Positions 2,398-51,685 of a stretch of DNA of 64,000 nucleotides are shown here, piece by piece. Each line of letters opens with the position of its first letter. Position 1 is the stretch's first letter. The notes under the pieces are model-generated. The model did no database searches. It was given only the letters and a program-made list of their open reading frames with translations, and was not told the DNA's origin. The stretch lies in NCBI GenBank assembly GCA_965248265.1, contig CBDFJF010000002.1, positions 352,001 through 416,000 of the forward strand, written 5' to 3'. This DNA is from Candidatus Latescibacterota bacterium (GTDB lineage Bacteria; Latescibacterota; UBA2968; UBA8231). Both the position numbers and the translations under genes were made by a program.

Positions 2398-3849
2398 TTA
2401 GTCGATCAGGTTTTTAAAGGCGTCCTCACCACGCCGGAACAGTTCCTTCACGTCCTGGCGCTGGCGGTCGTCGTTGTAGCGTCCGACCGTATCGATCCAC
2501 TTGAGGGATTCCCCGATCGAGTCGAGGAAGAACCGGGTGGCTTCCGGGCGTTCGGCCGGAGTGCGGCCACAGCGGACATAGACCGGACTGCTGTGGGCGT
2601 AGATCGATTGATCAAAGCTGTCGCGGGCATTGCCCCATAGCCGCACGGCAATCCAGCCGTCGGTGTCGAAGCGTGATCCGTACTTGAAGGTCCCTTCTCG
2701 CGGGCCGCTCAACCACTCTTCCCGGTGGACGACGGTGCCGTTGACGACAATCTCGGCGGCGTCGACGGGGTAGTAGGAACGAAACGTCACTTCTGCCTCG
2801 ACCTCGGCCGCGCCATTAGACTCCACCGTACTGCCGATGGGCAGGTCGTTGACCTTGAGGTCGACGGCCGGACCGTTGGTGATGTAGGTGCGGCCCGCCT
2901 TCATGCCCTCGATCCAGCTGGCGTAGGAGAACTCGGTGCCGTTATCCATCTGGACGTAGACGCGGTTGTTGGAGCAGACGAACCAATCGGTGCCGGTTGA
3001 AGCCGGCAGCCGTATGCCACAATTGAGCAGCTTGTACCACAGGTCGTATTCCGGATCCATCCAGAATGGATCGAACATGTTGAAGGCATCCAGCTTGCCG
3101 AGGACGGCGGCCACGGGTGCCTCCATGCCGCGGCCATTGTGACACCAGATGACGATACCGCCCTGATCGCGGGTTTCGTCGCAGCAAAAACACAGGGGTG
3201 GATAGTCCGGATCGAACTGGGCCGTGAGCGTGTGACCGCGACTGACCGGTTGCACCAGATTTCGGATGTTGAGGAACATGACGTGACCGTAGCCGAAGCC
3301 CCATGGCGAGCTGTCGCCGTAGTGCCGGTTCTCCTCGCCGATGTCGAGTACATGGTGGGCGGTGGTGAATTCGTTCATCACCCCGATCGGGTACTTGTTG
3401 CTGGCGTAAGGCAGTTGCCGGCGGTCGAGGACGCTGACGGCTGTGACGTTGTAGCCCTCGACGCTGCAGTCGACGGCGAGGCGGTCGTCCGGGCGGGTCT
3501 CCTTTTCATCGTAGTGGATGTGGGTATTGCCGGGGTACCAACCGTCTTCCTGCGGGTAGTTCCAACGCTGAATCGGGATCTCGACGTCGACGACGCCGGT
3601 CTCCGGCGCCTGGACGACGACCCGGGTGGGCTCGTACTCGGTGCCGCGCTCTACCAGGATGTCATTGCGCCCCCGGTGGACCTCGACCTCGAACTCGCCG
3701 TCCGAGAAGAAGAAGGGCGTGCCGGACCCGATTTTCAGCAGGGCGTCTGCCGGGCGCTTGAATACCCCTGAACTGTCCAGGACGTGAACCTTGGCGTCGA
3801 TCTTCTGGTTGGTGGCGGCGTCCACGATGGTGCCATGCAGCGTAGCCAT
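2398..3849 (-). CDS. CehA/McbA-family (PHP-like) metallohydrolase
   Basis: GNTHIH metal motif, GEE, GHV, WCHNG, STGTDW, RTYITNGP and AHSSPVYV. Confidence 0.8.
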   Translation of the reverse strand: MATLHGTIVDAATNQKIDAKVHVLDSSGVFKRPADALLKIGSGTPFFFSDGEFEVEVHRGRNDILVERGTEYEPTRVVVQAPETGVVDVEIPIQRWNYPQEDGWYPGNTHIHYDEKETRPDDRLAVDCSVEGYNVTAVSVLDRRQLPYASNKYPIGVMNEFTTAHHVLDIGEENRHYGDSSPWGFGYGHVMFLNIRNLVQPVSRGHTLTAQFDPDYPPLCFCCDETRDQGGIVIWCHNGRGMEAPVAAVLGKLDAFNMFDPFWMDPEYDLWYKLLNCGIRLPASTGTDWFVCSNNRVYVQMDNGTEFSYASWIEGMKAGRTYITNGPAVDLKVNDLPIGSTVESNGAAEVEAEVTFRSYYPVDAAEIVVNGTVVHREEWLSGPREGTFKYGSRFDTDGWIAVRLWGNARDSFDQSIYAHSSPVYVRCGRTPAERPEATRFFLDSIGESLKWIDTVGRYNDDRQRQDVKELFRRGEDAFKNLID

Positions 3850-46941: not shown

Positions 46942-47430
46942 TCAGTGATGATGATGGCCACCGGGCCCGTGAGCGTGTCCGTGGGACAATTCCTCTTCCG
47001 TCGCTGCCCGCACCTCCTCAACGCTGACATCGAAGTGCAGCACCTCACCAGCAAGCGGATGATTGCCGTCGACGGTGACCTCGTCCTCGGCCACGTCGGT
47101 GACGACGATGAGCTGGGTTTGACTATCTTCACCGGAAGCCTCGAATCGCATGCCGGGCTCGATATTGTCCACCGCTCCGAAGTCGCTGCGGGGCACGGTC
47201 TGGATGAGATCCTCATTGACCACACCATAACCATTTTCGGGTTGGATCGTGACGCTGAGTGAATCCCCCGCGCCCTTGCCGGCCAGCTCATTCTCGAGGC
47301 CGGGAATCAGATTGCCGGCGCCGTGCAGATAAACCAGAGGTTCACCATCATCGGATGAGTCGAGGATTTCTCCTGCGTCGTCGGTCAGTTTGTATTGGAT
47401 GGATACGACACAGTTCGCTGCGATCTTCAA
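46942..47430 (-). CDS. slyD: FKBP-type peptidyl-prolyl isomerase SlyD
   Basis: PLVYLHGAGNLIPGLE, DGNHPLAG and a His-rich tail; TTG start at 47430. Confidence 0.95.
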   Translation of the reverse strand: MKIAANCVVSIQYKLTDDAGEILDSSDDGEPLVYLHGAGNLIPGLENELAGKGAGDSLSVTIQPENGYGVVNEDLIQTVPRSDFGAVDNIEPGMRFEASGEDSQTQLIVVTDVAEDEVTVDGNHPLAGEVLHFDVSVEEVRAATEEELSHGHAHGPGGHHHH

Positions 47431-47513
47431 GGTTTCTTCCTTTGTGGGAGGCGATTGGATGACGAGCGAGTGTGCGGAATACAGGTCCGTACCGCAACCG
47501 GCCAACCGGTAAT

Positions 47514-47546
47514 AAAAGCCTCCCGAAGTCGCTGACTCCGAGAGGC
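47514..47546 (-). terminator. Intrinsic terminator downstream of the 47575..48039 gene
   Basis: Minus strand GCCTCTCGGAGTC-agc-GACTTCGGGAGGC-TTTTA (13-bp stem with G-U pairs). Confidence 0.7.
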
Positions 47547-47574
47547 CTGTTTTGGTTGGACGCCGGTCGGCGTC

Positions 47575-48039
47575 TCACTCCGCCGAGGCAAGCACCTCGA
47601 CGCCATCCAACACGTCAGTGATAGCGGGAGCCGGGTAGCACAACCGGACGATCCCCGGGAGCTCCTTTGCGTTCGAGCTGGTTGTCATTTCAAAGGCCAA
47701 CTGCAAGCAGGTATGGTACATCGGCATGCCCAGCGCGAAGGGATCGACTTGGGATTCGATCCTGGTGGTGCGAAGCTCGGCCAGGGGCCGCCAGGTTTGC
47801 TCCAAACCGGCCATCAGGTCCAGGAGGGCCTGCCAGCTGGAAAAGCCGTATTCACCGGCAAGCACCTGTTGCGCATGACGCAGTCCAAACGAGTCGGTTG
47901 CCGCAGCAGGCAGATCGGCAATCACGGCCTGCACACGCGCTACGGCCTCGGACTGACCGTCTTTGTGATCGTTGAGAAGCTGGCGAGCCTGCTTTTTGAG
48001 AACATCGAGATTGGGTTGGGGCGGGAGCTGACGTGACAT
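47575..48039 (-). CDS. Hypothetical protein: 'LP..PNL..LKKQA…AQ..LA.EYGF.SW' N-terminal domain fused to a FliM-middle-domain-like fragment
   Basis: The N-terminal ~75 aa match a motif I recall on ankyrin and other modular proteins. The C-terminal W.PL…E…P…L.FE…G.VRLCYP resembles FliM. Confidence 0.7.
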   Translation of the reverse strand: MSRQLPPQPNLDVLKKQARQLLNDHKDGQSEAVARVQAVIADLPAAATDSFGLRHAQQVLAGEYGFSSWQALLDLMAGLEQTWRPLAELRTTRIESQVDPFALGMPMYHTCLQLAFEMTTSSNAKELPGIVRLCYPAPAITDVLDGVEVLASAE

Positions 48040-48160
48040 AGAACACCACCTTCCTTCACTAATGCCTGCTGTCCGCTCAGATCAGGCTGAAAGAAGGTCT
48101 ATGTATACTGCAGAAGGTGGGTTTAACCCTTGCCGCGGACTGGAGGCTCCCTTTGAGCAC
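48040..48160 (-). promoter_or_regulatory. Structured 5' leader with anti-SD elements (candidate cis-regulatory RNA)
   Basis: Outer stem GCCU..GUCCGC/GCGGAC..AGGC, inner hairpins, and two segments complementary to the SD region. Confidence 0.6.
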
Positions 48161-48167
48161 TGCCGTC

Positions 48168-48196
48168 AATGTAGATATCGTGGTGACGGTGGACAA
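48168..48196 (-). promoter_or_regulatory. Sigma70-type promoter for the leader-containing transcript
   Basis: TTGTCC-N17-TACATT on the minus strand. Confidence 0.45.
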
Positions 48197-48324
48197 GGTA
48201 AGAGTCAAAGGCTCATGCTCGATTGAGACAGGCAGCGGCGAAAGCAGCTGTGTCCACTGGACTTCCCGACCACCCACTCGATTTGTTATCTTTAACTCCC
48301 TGAGCAAGTTACGCAGGAAATCTG

Positions 48325-50664
48325 ATGGCGAAGAAATCACAAATGACGCAGGTCGGCAAGCGCAAGTTGGAGATCTCCAACCTGGACAAGCCGCTGTGGC
48401 CGGAAGACGGCATCGTCAAGGCCGAGCTGATCGAATACTACCTGAAGATCGCGCCGACAATTCTCCGTCACATCAAGGGCCGGCCGCTGTCCTTTGTGCG
48501 TTTTCCCGACGGCATTCACGGTGAAAGCTTCTTCCAGAAAAACAGGCCCGACTGGGCGCCGGCATGGCTGGAGCACGAGAAGGTCGGCGACGAGGACAGC
48601 GCTCTCGACTACGTCTTTGCCAGCGAAGAGGCCTCGATGGTGTGGATCGGCAATCACGCCTGCATCGAGCTGCATCAGATTCACGCGCGGCGGCCCCACT
48701 TCGACAAACCGGACTACATGGTCTTCGACCTCGATCCTCCGGAGGGATTTCCATTCCCTGACGTGGTCGAACTGGCATTCGAGTTGAAGGATCACGTCGA
48801 ATCCCACGGCTACCACACCTTCGCCAAGACCACGGGTCGCAAGGGTATCCACCTGGTTGTGCCGGTCGAGCCCAAGTGGTCATTCAGCGAGGTGTTTGAG
48901 ACTGCCAAGGCGATCGCCCAACCATTCGTGCGCTCCCACTCGTCTTCGACGACTCTGGCCATAAAGAAGGAGGCGCGAAAAGGGCGGGTTCTCGTTGACG
49001 TTTTCCGCAACCGTCCGGCGCAGACGATCGTCGCTCCCTACAGCGTGCGCGGATCTGCCGGCGCACCGGTGTCGATGCCGTTGACCTGGGAGGATCTGGA
49101 AGGTCTCGAGGACCCGCGCGAGTTCAATCTGCGCACGGTCTTTGACCGGGTCGTCTCCGAGGGCGATCCGTGGGAGGCACTGGCGGCGTACGCCGTGGCC
49201 CTGCACACCGAGCGCAAGGCGCCTGCCCGCAAGCGCGCCAGGACGAGCAAGTCGAGGACCTACAAGACCCCTGAACAACTGGAGGATTACGAGGCCAAGC
49301 GCGCCTTTGACAAGACGCCGGAGCCCAAGGCCGAGCTTGTCGGTGGGGGAGGTAATGCCTTCGTCGTCCACCGGCATCACGCCTCGCGTCTGCACTACGA
49401 TCTGCGCCTGGAAAAGGACGGGGCGCTACAGTCGTGGGCTATCCCGAAGGGTCTGCCACCACGTCCGGGTATCAAGCGCCTGGCGGTGAAGGTCGAGGAC
49501 CACCCGCTGGAGTACCTGACCTTCGAGGGCCGCATCCCCAAAGGGGAATATGGCGCTGGTCCGATGTGGGTCTACGCACACGGACGCTACGAGATCACCA
49601 AGGACAAGCCGGACAGCTTTTACTTTAGGCTGCAAAGCAAGGAACTGACGGCCGAATACCGGTTGATAAACACCAAGGGGAAGGATTGGCTGCTGGAGCG
49701 TCTCGACAGCCCGCAGGTCGACTGGTTGAACGACCAAATCGAGCCGATGCTGGCCGAAAGCCGGGATGAGCCACCTACCGGTGACGAATATGTCTACGAG
49801 GTGAAATGGGACGGCATTCGAGCCATGGTCGCTCTCGAGGAAGGGGAGATCCGCATTCGCACACGCAGCCAGCGCGATGTGACTACCTCATTTCCGGAGT
49901 TGCAGTCGGCGGAGCTCTTCCGCGGCGCCACAGGGCTGTTCGACGGCGAGATCGTCTGCCTGGATGATGCCGGCAAGCCGGTGTTCACGGATGTGATGGG
50001 GAGGCTCCAGGCCAAGGGGGAGCATGGCATCGCGCGATCGATGGGGCGCCATCCCGCGGTCTGTTACCTGTTCGATTGCCTCTACCTGGATGGCCGCCCG
50101 ATCGTCAATGAACCGATGATGCGCCGGCACGAGTGGCTGGAGAGTGCCATCAAGCCGGATGGGCCGTATCGAGCCAGTGAAGTGGTCGAGGAAGGGGGTC
50201 AGGAGCTGTTCGAGGCTGCCAAAACGATCGGGATCGAGGGGATCGTGGCAAAAACGAGGGACGGCTCGTATCTTCCGGGAAGGCGCAGCGACACCTGGCT
50301 CAAGGTCAAGGTGCGCCAGACTATGGAGTGCCAGGTTCTGGGCTATACCAGTGGAAAAGGGGACCGACTGAGCCACTTTGGTGCCCTGCATCTGGGGGTC
50401 TCAAACGGGGAAAACGGGGGCATCAAGTACCTGGGCAAGGTCGGTAACGGCTTCGACGACAAGTTGCTGAAGTCCATTCACTCGCAACTCAAAAAAGTCA
50501 AAGAGACCAAGCGCCAGATCAGCCAGAAACCAGCGGACGACGCTGAGACCACCTGGATCGAGCCCAACCTGATCTGCGAGGTGCAGTTCGCGTCGCTGAC
50601 GAACATGGGAACGCTGCGAGAGGCCGTGTTCCTGAGAATGCGACCTGACCTCGACGAATTCTAA
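48325..50664 (+). CDS. ligD: NHEJ DNA ligase D (polymerase-phosphoesterase-ligase order)
   Basis: POL: SNLDK, RFPDG, FFQKN, FDLDP, PYSVR. PE: FVVHRHHASRLHYDLRLE, SWAIPKG, EDHP. LIG: YEVKWDGIR, EGIVAK, WLKVK. Confidence 0.96.
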   Translation: MAKKSQMTQVGKRKLEISNLDKPLWPEDGIVKAELIEYYLKIAPTILRHIKGRPLSFVRFPDGIHGESFFQKNRPDWAPAWLEHEKVGDEDSALDYVFASEEASMVWIGNHACIELHQIHARRPHFDKPDYMVFDLDPPEGFPFPDVVELAFELKDHVESHGYHTFAKTTGRKGIHLVVPVEPKWSFSEVFETAKAIAQPFVRSHSSSTTLAIKKEARKGRVLVDVFRNRPAQTIVAPYSVRGSAGAPVSMPLTWEDLEGLEDPREFNLRTVFDRVVSEGDPWEALAAYAVALHTERKAPARKRARTSKSRTYKTPEQLEDYEAKRAFDKTPEPKAELVGGGGNAFVVHRHHASRLHYDLRLEKDGALQSWAIPKGLPPRPGIKRLAVKVEDHPLEYLTFEGRIPKGEYGAGPMWVYAHGRYEITKDKPDSFYFRLQSKELTAEYRLINTKGKDWLLERLDSPQVDWLNDQIEPMLAESRDEPPTGDEYVYEVKWDGIRAMVALEEGEIRIRTRSQRDVTTSFPELQSAELFRGATGLFDGEIVCLDDAGKPVFTDVMGRLQAKGEHGIARSMGRHPAVCYLFDCLYLDGRPIVNEPMMRRHEWLESAIKPDGPYRASEVVEEGGQELFEAAKTIGIEGIVAKTRDGSYLPGRRSDTWLKVKVRQTMECQVLGYTSGKGDRLSHFGALHLGVSNGENGGIKYLGKVGNGFDDKLLKSIHSQLKKVKETKRQISQKPADDAETTWIEPNLICEVQFASLTNMGTLREAVFLRMRPDLDEF

Positions 50665-50797
50665 CGAATTCATTTGCGAGTTCGACTCCTGTCGAACTCG
50701 TGACAGGTGACTCACCGTTAGAAGGGATTTTGCGTGACTAAAAGGAGTGAACCATGAGAAGGACGAGTTCTGCGAACTCGTTTCATAGGAGGGTACT

Positions 50798-51685
50798 ATG
50801 AGAAGCTTATGGAAGGGTCACATTCGGTTTTCGATGGTGACGATTCCTATTCGTCTCTACACCGCCGTCGACAGCGGGGCCACGGTCAGCTTTAATCAGC
50901 TGCACAAGGAGGACAATGGCCGCGTCGGCTATGACAAGAAGTGCAAGAGCTGTGGCGAGGCGCTCAGTGCCAAGGATATCATCAAGGGCTACGAGTATTC
51001 TCCGGATGAGTACGTCGTCGTCGAGGATGAGGATCTGCAGAAGCTCAAGCTGAAGAGCACGAAGATCATCGAGATCGAAGGCTTCGTCGATACCGAAGAG
51101 GTACACGAAACCCTATACGACACTCCGTATTACGCAGGTCCGGATGGCGAGGTTGCGGTCAAGGTCTATGCCCTGTTAAACGAAGCCTTGAAGGCCAGTG
51201 GCAAACTCGGTGTCGGGAAGGTGGTCATGCGTGACCGTGAGGACATGGTGCTGATCGGCCATCACGAAGGTGGTCTGGTCATCTACAAGCTGAGGTATCC
51301 TCAGCGAGTGCGTGCGATCGGCGAGGTTCCGGGGATCGATCAGACCGAGGTCAACTCCGAGGAGTTGAAGCTGGCGCAGAGCCTGGTAGACTCGATGTCG
51401 AAGCCGCTGGCCGACATGGAGCTCAAGGATACCTATAATGATGCCATCAAGGACCTGATCAATGCCAAGGTGGAGGGCCAGGAGATTGTCATGGCGGCCG
51501 AAGAGGTCAAGCCGGTCGTCGACATCATGTCCGCTCTCAAGGACAGCATCGAGCAGGCCAAGGAAGAGAAGAAGCCGATGAAGAAGGCGGCCGGTGAGAA
51601 AGCCGCAGCCAAGAAAAAGGCGCCAAAAAAGAAGGCAGCTCCCAAGAAGGCCAAGGCCAAGGCCAAGGCCAAGAAGGTGGCGTGA
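50798..51685 (+). CDS. ku: NHEJ Ku protein
   Basis: MRSLWKGHIRFSMVTIP, IIKGYEY, PYY, DIMSALKDSI and a Lys/Ala-rich tail. Confidence 0.97.
   Translation: MRSLWKGHIRFSMVTIPIRLYTAVDSGATVSFNQLHKEDNGRVGYDKKCKSCGEALSAKDIIKGYEYSPDEYVVVEDEDLQKLKLKSTKIIEIEGFVDTEEVHETLYDTPYYAGPDGEVAVKVYALLNEALKASGKLGVGKVVMRDREDMVLIGHHEGGLVIYKLRYPQRVRAIGEVPGIDQTEVNSEELKLAQSLVDSMSKPLADMELKDTYNDAIKDLINAKVEGQEIVMAAEEVKPVVDIMSALKDSIEQAKEEKKPMKKAAGEKAAAKKKAPKKKAAPKKAKAKAKAKKVA

Follow-up and report, generated by a model that had tools for sequence, protein, structure and literature searches.

A predicted Shine-Dalgarno-sequestering leader RNA accompanies one N-terminal protein domain, fused to diverse cargos, in many bacterial phyla

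The 64,000-nucleotide (nt) stretch of DNA analysed here (the window; positions 352,001 to 416,000 of contig CBDFJF010000002.1, assembly GCA_965248265.1) carries on its minus strand a small unit consisting of a promoter, a leader of ~125 nt, an open reading frame (ORF) of 154 amino acids (aa), and a terminator. The main finding of this report is that this unit is, very probably, a structured cassette in which the leader RNA sequesters the Shine-Dalgarno (SD) sequence of its own gene and is coupled to the N-terminal domain that the gene encodes. Judging from sequence comparisons, one cassette made up of the promoter, the leader, and the first 80 codons is passed on as a whole, with differing cargo joined behind it, and the leader-domain unit appears to span Planctomycetota, Acidobacteriota, Verrucomicrobiota, and at least five other phyla. 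This would add a large and phylogenetically broad class of structured RNA that is absent from the current Rfam, and it offers the first functional handle on a domain that occurs in over 10,000 sequence clusters and has no assigned family.

The fold of the leader is best seen in its homologues. Folded alone, the copy in the window has a minimum free energy of -44.5 kcal/mol, which is no better than chance (z -1.28, with 18 of 200 shuffles as good). The covariance model used to collect homologues was built from 25 leaders, and the structure given to it consisted of two hairpins, P1 and P2, and one long-range helix, pseudoknot b. In the resulting alignment of 98 leaders (A5; pair counts were made on 97 distinct rows), 97.9% of the cells are paired, changes on both sides are found at 18 of 22 pairs, and compensated cells number 198 vs 43 in shuffles, none of 500 shuffles being as good; when the 3' partners are slid by one to three columns, paired cells fall to 32-48%. 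Three further helices, P3, P4, and pseudoknot a (the last first detected by a mutual-information scan), co-vary although they were absent from the search model. A set of 73 metagenome leaders collected independently (A7) is 99.0% paired, again with none of 500 shuffles as good; because the search pattern that retrieved it prescribed most of P2 and the 5' strand of pseudoknot b, its independent evidence is confined to P1, pseudoknot a, P3, and P4. The leader is, as predicted from these alignments, composed of four helices (P1 to P4) and two pseudoknots, all six helices being backed by covariation (Table 1): the strand that follows P2 pairs with the P1 loop in pseudoknot a, and the strand that precedes P2 pairs with the P3 loop in pseudoknot b. 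G-U pairs occur on the leader strand (the variable P3 pair, for instance, is U-G 18 times), which argues for an RNA rather than a DNA element. Several unpaired bases are near-invariant in A5, namely, GG and AA after pseudoknot b and an A between P2 and pseudoknot a. A conserved structured domain with covariation, as is typical of riboswitches, is thus present in both A5 and A7. An alternative pairing proposed by RNAalifold, GGGC with GCCU, was dropped because P2 and P3 are each compensated at those columns.

An earlier note on this DNA, made from the single sequence, had drawn an outer stem closed around two hairpins, and this drawing survives in part. Its GUCCGC/GCGGAC helix corresponds to pseudoknot b and its GGGU/ACCC hairpin to P2, both of which hold across the 97 leaders. 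The remainder of the outer stem as drawn, GCCU (48147-48144) with AGGC, is complementary in this copy but unconserved, the variable pair being paired in 52 of 96 leaders; AGGC pairs instead with the local GCCUG of P3 (95 of 95 at that position). The proposed UCAG/CUGA hairpin is likewise complementary in this copy and unconserved (33-50% paired).

In P4, an anti-SD strand resembling the tail of 16S rRNA, ACCUUCUUUCA, is predicted to pair with UGAAGGAAGGU, which includes the gene's own strong SD, so that the folded leader would hide the ribosome-binding site. In the family, the cognate duplex averages -14.85 vs -11.42 kcal/mol for non-cognate combinations, none of 5000 permutations being as low, and in 94 of 96 leaders it is lower in energy than the duplex with a shuffled partner; in A7, the corresponding values are -15.05 and -11.04 kcal/mol, once more with 0 of 5000 permutations as low. 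The two strands of P4 therefore co-vary, as expected of an expression platform that acts on the SD. The earlier note had postulated a dual anti-SD. One strand, ACCUUCUUUCA, is borne out by covariation, whereas the second, CCACCUUC, which is complementary in this copy to GAAGGUGG at the ribosome-binding site, shows no co-variation with it (-7.35 vs -7.16 kcal/mol, 553 of 5000 permutations); the CCU within CCACCUUC pairs with AGG of the first hairpin loop, forming pseudoknot a. From this architecture, we infer that the leader would repress translation in cis.

Table 1. Features of the unit in window coordinates. Pairing percentages and compensated pairs refer to A5 (97 leaders) unless A7 is named.
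Feature	Position	Strand	Description
Structured 5' leader	48034..48163	-	Covariance-model match over the entire model, 108.9 bits; ends 3 nt past the ATG
P1 hairpin	GCUC 48158-48155 with GAGC 48149-48146	-	97.4% paired, 2/4 pairs compensated; A7 98.6% paired
Pseudoknot a	AGG of P1 loop 48152-48150 with CCU 48117-48115	-	94.8% paired, 3/3 compensated; A7 98.6%
Pseudoknot b	GUCCGC 48140-48135 with GCGGAC 48076-48071 in P3 loop	-	99.3% paired, 5/6 compensated; RNAalifold agrees
P2 hairpin	GGGU 48129-48126 with ACCC 48122-48119	-	98.7% paired, 4/4 pairs compensated
P3 hairpin	GCCUG 48087-48083 with CAGGC 48068-48064	-	97.9% paired, 4/5 compensated; A7 replicates
P4	anti-SD ACCUUCUUUCA 48098-48088 with SD-side UGAAGGAAGGU 48058-48048	-	-15.3 kcal/mol in this copy
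N-terminal domain, ~residues 1-80	47800..48039	-	Four predicted helices, basic; AF2 pLDDT 74.4
ORF, 154 aa	48039..47575	-	ATG at 48039; open reading frame in sequence
C-terminal remnant, residues 75-144	47608..47817	-	Resembles end of FliM-like cargo
-35 box TTGTCC	48196-48191	-	Read from sequence; TTGACA-like -35 and 16-18 nt spacing kept in family
-10 box TACATT	48173-48168	-	Ends 4 nt ahead of RNA model start
Intrinsic terminator	47511..47546	-	Hairpin 47546-47518 (RNAfold stem to 47548), then UUUUAUU

The coupling of this RNA to one protein domain is the other main result, and it is seen whichever of the two is followed. A set of 27 domain genes was drawn from the window's genome, from its family, and from a neighbouring family, and the 200 nt upstream of them were aligned, as the earlier note had suggested. 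The same leader was found in full in 25 and as its 3' half only in the other two, with a TTGACA-like -35 and a TAnnnT -10 at a fixed distance upstream. In the window's genome, five of six domain genes have a full leader and the sixth has the 3' half; the covariance model finds six copies there, five before domain genes and one a 5' relic. The RNA is present in 48 of 76 genomes of the family, with ~173 matches and up to 16 per genome, and in 60 of 151 genomes of the phylum sample. Starting from the RNA, 66 of 70 genome loci begin with the domain at the ATG of the model (58 intact, 8 broken). These loci comprise the best match per genome (29 loci: 27 intact, 2 broken), the 20 lowest-scoring matches listed (15 intact, 3 degenerate, 2 before a 96-aa FliG_C-like ORF), and 21 loci from other families or classes (16 intact, 3 truncated or frameshifted, 1 with an unclear 21-aa ORF, 1 before an ankyrin remnant). 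Metagenome contigs were scanned with a 19-base RNA pattern, which matched at least 120 stretches; of 80 loci examined, 74 had sufficient downstream sequence to be assessed. Among the matches listed, 71 of these 74 encode the domain (70 by hidden Markov model, 1 frameshifted) and the remaining three are two 5' relics and one chance match, while the domain starts 93-146 nt after the pattern in 68 of 70, the outliers lying at 179 and 284 nt. When named genomes were scanned protein-first, the leader was found directly upstream at 17 of 17 loci, with scores of 51-102 bits, in Acidobacteriota, Opitutaceae/Verrucomicrobiae, Lentisphaerae, Armatimonadota, Fibrobacterota, Latescibacterota, a Methylocystis metagenome-assembled genome, and others. 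Outside Planctomycetota, the RNA is single-copy in all five genomes checked, and there is one each in the 11 positive genomes of 101 Acidobacteriota.

Followed from the domain, the picture is similar. A set of 65 domain genes outside the window's genome was assembled, one of which was set aside at a contig edge, and the other 64 were matched by hand: 52 have a full leader, 3 match model positions 6-107 only, 2 have a weak 3' half, and 7 have none. Two of the 52 genes contain the domain in tandem, and in them the leader precedes the matched copy by ~310 nt. At the level of genomes, also assessed by hand, the RNA is present in each of the 14 family genomes that have the domain and is lacking in 8 of the 10 that have no domain match. 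The leader is almost never found before anything else over at least eight phyla, which points to selection on the pair rather than mere linkage, and we take it that selection probably keeps leader and domain together. The earlier note's proposal that the two travel together as a cassette thus holds within the window's own genome, its family, its phylum, other phyla, and metagenomes.

Leaders without an intact domain gene, and leaders in unusual settings, are worth recording separately. The relic in the window's genome (L044 1501-1633; G000:C2:1565244-1565376) extends from P1 through the anti-SD and the first P3 strand, where it gives way to the 3' end of a convergent gene of 453 aa, and has no domain gene after it; L155 and L196 are further broken or relic copies. 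The clearest instances of a leader serving another ORF are found in two genomes of one genus (L078 101-518 and L082 101-518), where full leaders precede a 96-aa protein that resembles the FliG C-terminal domain and lacks the N-terminal domain. One soil metagenome contig (L197) has two cassettes back to back, their divergent leaders, at 3365-3496 (-) and 3654-3791 (+), being ~160 nt apart. Of the three pattern matches in viral contigs, one is a chance match in coding sequence, one covers a 5' part only, and one is a full leader that sits with the start of the domain gene at the end of an IMG/VR contig classed as viral (L271 9068-9539).

The domain itself is widespread and its cargo is diverse. 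A profile of it matches 10,428 representative proteins with E<=1e-3, a number that falls to 5,420 with E<=1e-10; among the best 150 of the 10,428, the match starts within the first 20 residues in nearly all, and many contain two or three tandem stretches. Its median isoelectric point is 8.8 and 9.8 in two sets, and conserved positions include K15, K16, R19, R35, R62, Y64, F66, and W69. No family in Pfam or NCBIfam matches it, and its neighbours in the ESM Atlas are unnamed clusters only. The OST-HTH/LOTUS family (PF12872) was considered and rejected, with 12 bits vs a cut-off of 23.8, an E value of 0.19, and a match confined to residues 63-76. In the window's genome, the same 80-residue N terminus opens five other genes, in which the cargo is ankyrin (two genes), bifunctional-nuclease, FliM-like, or an APH-type kinase. 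Among 54 family proteins, the cargo includes ankyrin (14), FliG_C (12), sigma-54 ATPase (4), BFN (3), FliM (3), APH (2), and others; among 62 metagenome proteins (among the matches listed), ankyrin (39), leucine-rich repeats (LRR, 7), Clp_N (2), and WD40 (1). That the domain sits on many unrelated cargos, which the earlier note had stated, holds for ankyrin, LRR, FliG_C, FliM, and sigma-54 ATPase, and the unnamed N-terminal domain is the only feature common to the downstream genes. A leader that stays constant with one domain while the rest of the protein varies is an unusual pattern. Flagellar-switch cargo (FliG_C in 12 and FliM in 3 of the 54) is common in the Planctomycete family and not in the metagenome set; one 552-aa member (L031 139-1794, minus strand) combines the N-terminal domain, FliG_C, and, at residues 310-376, a stretch resembling the cytoplasmic loop of MotA, which is the partner of FliG_C in the rotor-stator contact.

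The link between RNA and domain does not seem to reside in the nucleotides of the coding sequence. In 89 domain genes in which leader-coding sequence pairing was looked for, the real 5' coding sequence forms weaker pairings with the leader than its synonymous recodings; for the 5' domain of the leader, the values are -23.4 kcal/mol for real and -27.4 kcal/mol for recoded sequences, the real one being lower in only 16 of 89. Third-position G makes up 22% in codons 2-16 of these genes (48036-47992 in the window) vs 36% in the cargo, and the Leu and Pro codons in the same stretch are skewed to CTC/CTT and CCC/CCT, whereas no codon bias was found for the KK motif. Weaker pairing than in recodings, together with the absence of KK bias, argues that the coupling is not RNA-RNA.

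Our leading reading of these results, which we advance tentatively and rate at somewhat less than an even chance, is autoregulatory: the domain would bind its own leader. The leader would be a translational off-lock read by the protein domain joined to it; the N-terminal domain would bind and stabilise the folded leader, possibly as a nascent chain on the same mRNA, or else the pool of all paralogues would supply the binding domain; and binding would keep P4 closed, producing negative feedback. The full explanation, an SD-hiding leader-domain cassette together with autoregulation by its own N-terminal domain, is in our view tenable but comparably tentative. A bolder form, possible although we think it unlikely in all its parts, is that of a portable RNA-protein cassette whose N-terminal domain, first out of the ribosome, would fold and clamp the double-pseudoknot leader of its own mRNA, any fused cargo thereby gaining dosage control in cis, and which evolution would have put to use again in thousands of proteins across eight phyla or more.

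Several observations weigh against autoregulation by the domain. On the protein side, Foldseek with the domain model found nothing in the PDB at E<=1e-3, so that no likeness to an RNA-binding fold was detected, and a wide fold comparison with VIA-align gave a best Z of 3.8, which is no convincing solved fold; moreover, most of the cargo consists of protein-binding repeats (ankyrin, LRR), an odd load for an RNA-binding head. On the genetic side, neither partner depends strictly on the other in cis, since the domain occurs without a leader in 7 of 64 genes and 3 of 70 leaders precede another ORF, and adjacent elements are co-inherited anyway, so that co-occurrence alone is no proof of contact. 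On the RNA side, P4 averages -15 kcal/mol and the SD may stay closed with or without a protein. A conserved SD-open alternative was sought in pairings of an SD mimic (GAAAGGG) with the anti-SD, of the P1 loop with the anti-SD, and of the spacer with the SD or the anti-SD, and none of them co-varies; a linker CCUCC/SD pairing has a small effect (-5.64 vs -5.28 kcal/mol, 18 of 3000 permutations), which we distrust owing to sequence relatedness.

The leader could also be a riboswitch, although we consider this doubtful. Its double pseudoknot would then be an aptamer for a small molecule or ion that locks or unlocks P4, and the N-terminal domain would use or sense the same compound, which would explain why RNA and domain remain associated. 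The translational pseudoknot riboswitches SAM-II and preQ1-II/III hold the SD within their fold, and the leader resembles them in being a compact pseudoknot that includes or controls the SD, with near-invariant unpaired bases, strong covariation, and a predicted action on translation in cis. Its single copy in genomes outside Planctomycetota and its spread over many phyla would suit a riboswitch too, as would the cargo of the Planctomycete family, which is rich in motility-switch parts and sigma-54 activators, both common targets of second-messenger control. Unlike those riboswitches, however, the leader has no Rfam match and no known ligand, its association is with one protein domain rather than a pathway or genes for transport or metabolism, and its context points to no ligand; P4 is long and very stable for a switching helix, and no conserved alternative fold emerged among the pairings examined. 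If a small molecule did read the leader, it would be a new orphan riboswitch class pointing to the ligand of the domain.

Another explanation, which we regard as rather unlikely, is that a third party common to these phyla opens or closes the leader, be it an RNA-binding regulator, a small RNA on the anti-SD, RNase III on the stack of P4, P3, and pseudoknot, or temperature, and that the link to the domain reflects inheritance as a block with swapped cargo. Promoter, leader, and domain are indeed contiguous, copies multiply within genomes to as many as 16, and the broken or relic copies (L044, L155, L196) show that the block turns over either whole or piecemeal. Moreover, an SD helix of -15 kcal/mol that is off by default resembles leaders that need an activator, such as that of rpoS, and the SD and the GGA-containing P1 loop might be sites for a CsrA-type protein. 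The analysis yielded no candidate factor, however, and over at least eight phyla the leader stands before other ORFs in just 3 of 70 loci and in at most 3 of 74 metagenome loci (among the matches listed), which speaks for selection on the pair over mere linkage. Finally, a constitutive structure that sets a low fixed rate of translation or protects the 5' end of the mRNA, the protein being harmful in excess, is improbable: a single conserved fold is detectable and the coding sequence seems to spare it, in that its first 15 codons avoid third-position G and it pairs less with the leader than recodings do, but two pseudoknots and ~20 near-invariant bases exceed what SD masking or end protection needs, for which a simple hairpin would suffice, and simple hairpins are not sequence-conserved across phyla.

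Autoregulation by the encoded domain, to return to the reading we favour, has precedents in the autogenous leaders of RNA-binding proteins, such as the rpsO/S15 pseudoknot, the long-range pseudoknot of L20, the thrS operator, and the 5' untranslated region of cspA. As in these, a structured and often pseudoknotted 5' leader lies directly upstream of the gene of the putative reader, the ribosome-binding site is controlled, and the two co-occur across taxa; for the present leader, this position upstream of the putative reader gene is established as co-occurrence (66/70, 71/74 among the matches listed, and 17/17 loci). The differences are that the partner here is a domain without assigned fold or function, found on many unrelated cargos in up to 16 copies per genome, that its binding to the leader is putative, and that no cellular RNA target is known for the leader to mimic. 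In its combination of a constant 5' gene part with recombining 3' cargo, the cassette also resembles polymorphic toxin loci (see PMC3482391). Three differences set it apart from those loci: its cargo domains are not toxins, neither cassette arrays nor immunity genes were observed, and a structured RNA forms part of its constant portion. If it is true that the domain reads the leader, the pair would be a self-contained and transferable module of translational feedback, of interest for RNA-protein recognition, for dosage control in gene families, and as a compact part for synthetic biology. The question reduces to an RNA of 130 nt and a protein of 80 residues, and is directly testable.

As for novelty, the Rfam scan proposed in the earlier note yields no Rfam 15 family that matches the leader. 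With cmscan at E<=10 on window positions 47300-48500, only two weak plus-strand matches were obtained, both elsewhere, and a search of 19 loci that have homologous leaders, run at E<=1, matched a group II intron outside the leader and nothing else. In one related genome, a match to group II intron domain 1-4 (RF02003, 106.8 bits; L032 2695-2834, plus strand) lies just downstream of the domain gene. The literature term LKKQAK returned no papers, and no such motif or domain appears in the main texts of PMC5737381, PMC11109978, and a 2026 bioRxiv survey. In the literature searched, nothing came nearer than one table row, for Rhodopirellula-1, and the link to the domain, the pseudoknots, and the spread over phyla went unmentioned. 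Table 1 of Weinberg et al. 2010 (PMC2864571) lists Rhodopirellula-1 as possibly cis-regulatory, from Planctomycetes and Proteobacteria, without an Rfam accession, and marks it with '?' for being RNA. Its taxa overlap with those of the leader, a comparison made by the table row, and the main text of that paper, unlike our results for the leader, connects it to no protein domain, pseudoknots, or other phyla. On the strength of that row, the two may or may not be the same RNA.

Turning to the locus itself, the promoter, leader, 154-aa ORF, and terminator that the earlier note described are all present on the minus strand. The promoter has a 17-nt spacer between TTGTCC and TACATT and scores 8/12 as a sigma-70 promoter; a strict sigma-70 and terminator scan of the locus called neither promoter nor terminator, and both are supported by separate checks. 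Among homologous leaders, 57 of 98 have a sigma-70 match of at least 9/12, a level that 2% of shuffles reach; in 88 of 98, the RNA model begins 1-8 nt past the end of the -10 box, from which we infer that the leader RNA begins at or beside the transcript start. The terminator hairpin reaches -34.7 kcal/mol (z -4.9), and none of 200 shuffles is equally stable.

While the cassette is intact in this window, its cargo looks like a shortened FliM-like remnant. The 154-aa ORF has no match to any Pfam or NCBIfam model, FliM (PF02154) included, which is matched by the fuller relatives L009 and L046. Residues 1-83 align at 62% identity to residues 1-84 of a 318-aa homologue, and residues 75-144 align to residues 246-313, the cargo end, of the same protein; because the ORF aligns to both ends only, ~160 residues of the FliM-like cargo are evidently missing by comparison with this homologue, and the 154-aa protein may be a decayed or a minimal member. 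Its two halves also recur separately. The C-terminal half (window 47575-47817, minus strand) is 84-92% identical in short metagenome proteins without the N-terminal domain (P0002, P0003), and the N-terminal domain is 76-90% identical ahead of other cargo (P0004, P0006), a pattern that fits recent recombination between domain and cargo.

Downstream of the ORF lies a gene for an FKBP-type isomerase. On its other side, a gap of 285 nt separates the ORF from the divergent ligD (48325..50664), which encodes primase-polymerase, phosphoesterase, and ligase domains and is followed by ku, the two genes occupying 48325-51685 on the plus strand; since the cassette and ligD diverge across this gap, it must house the ligD promoter too.

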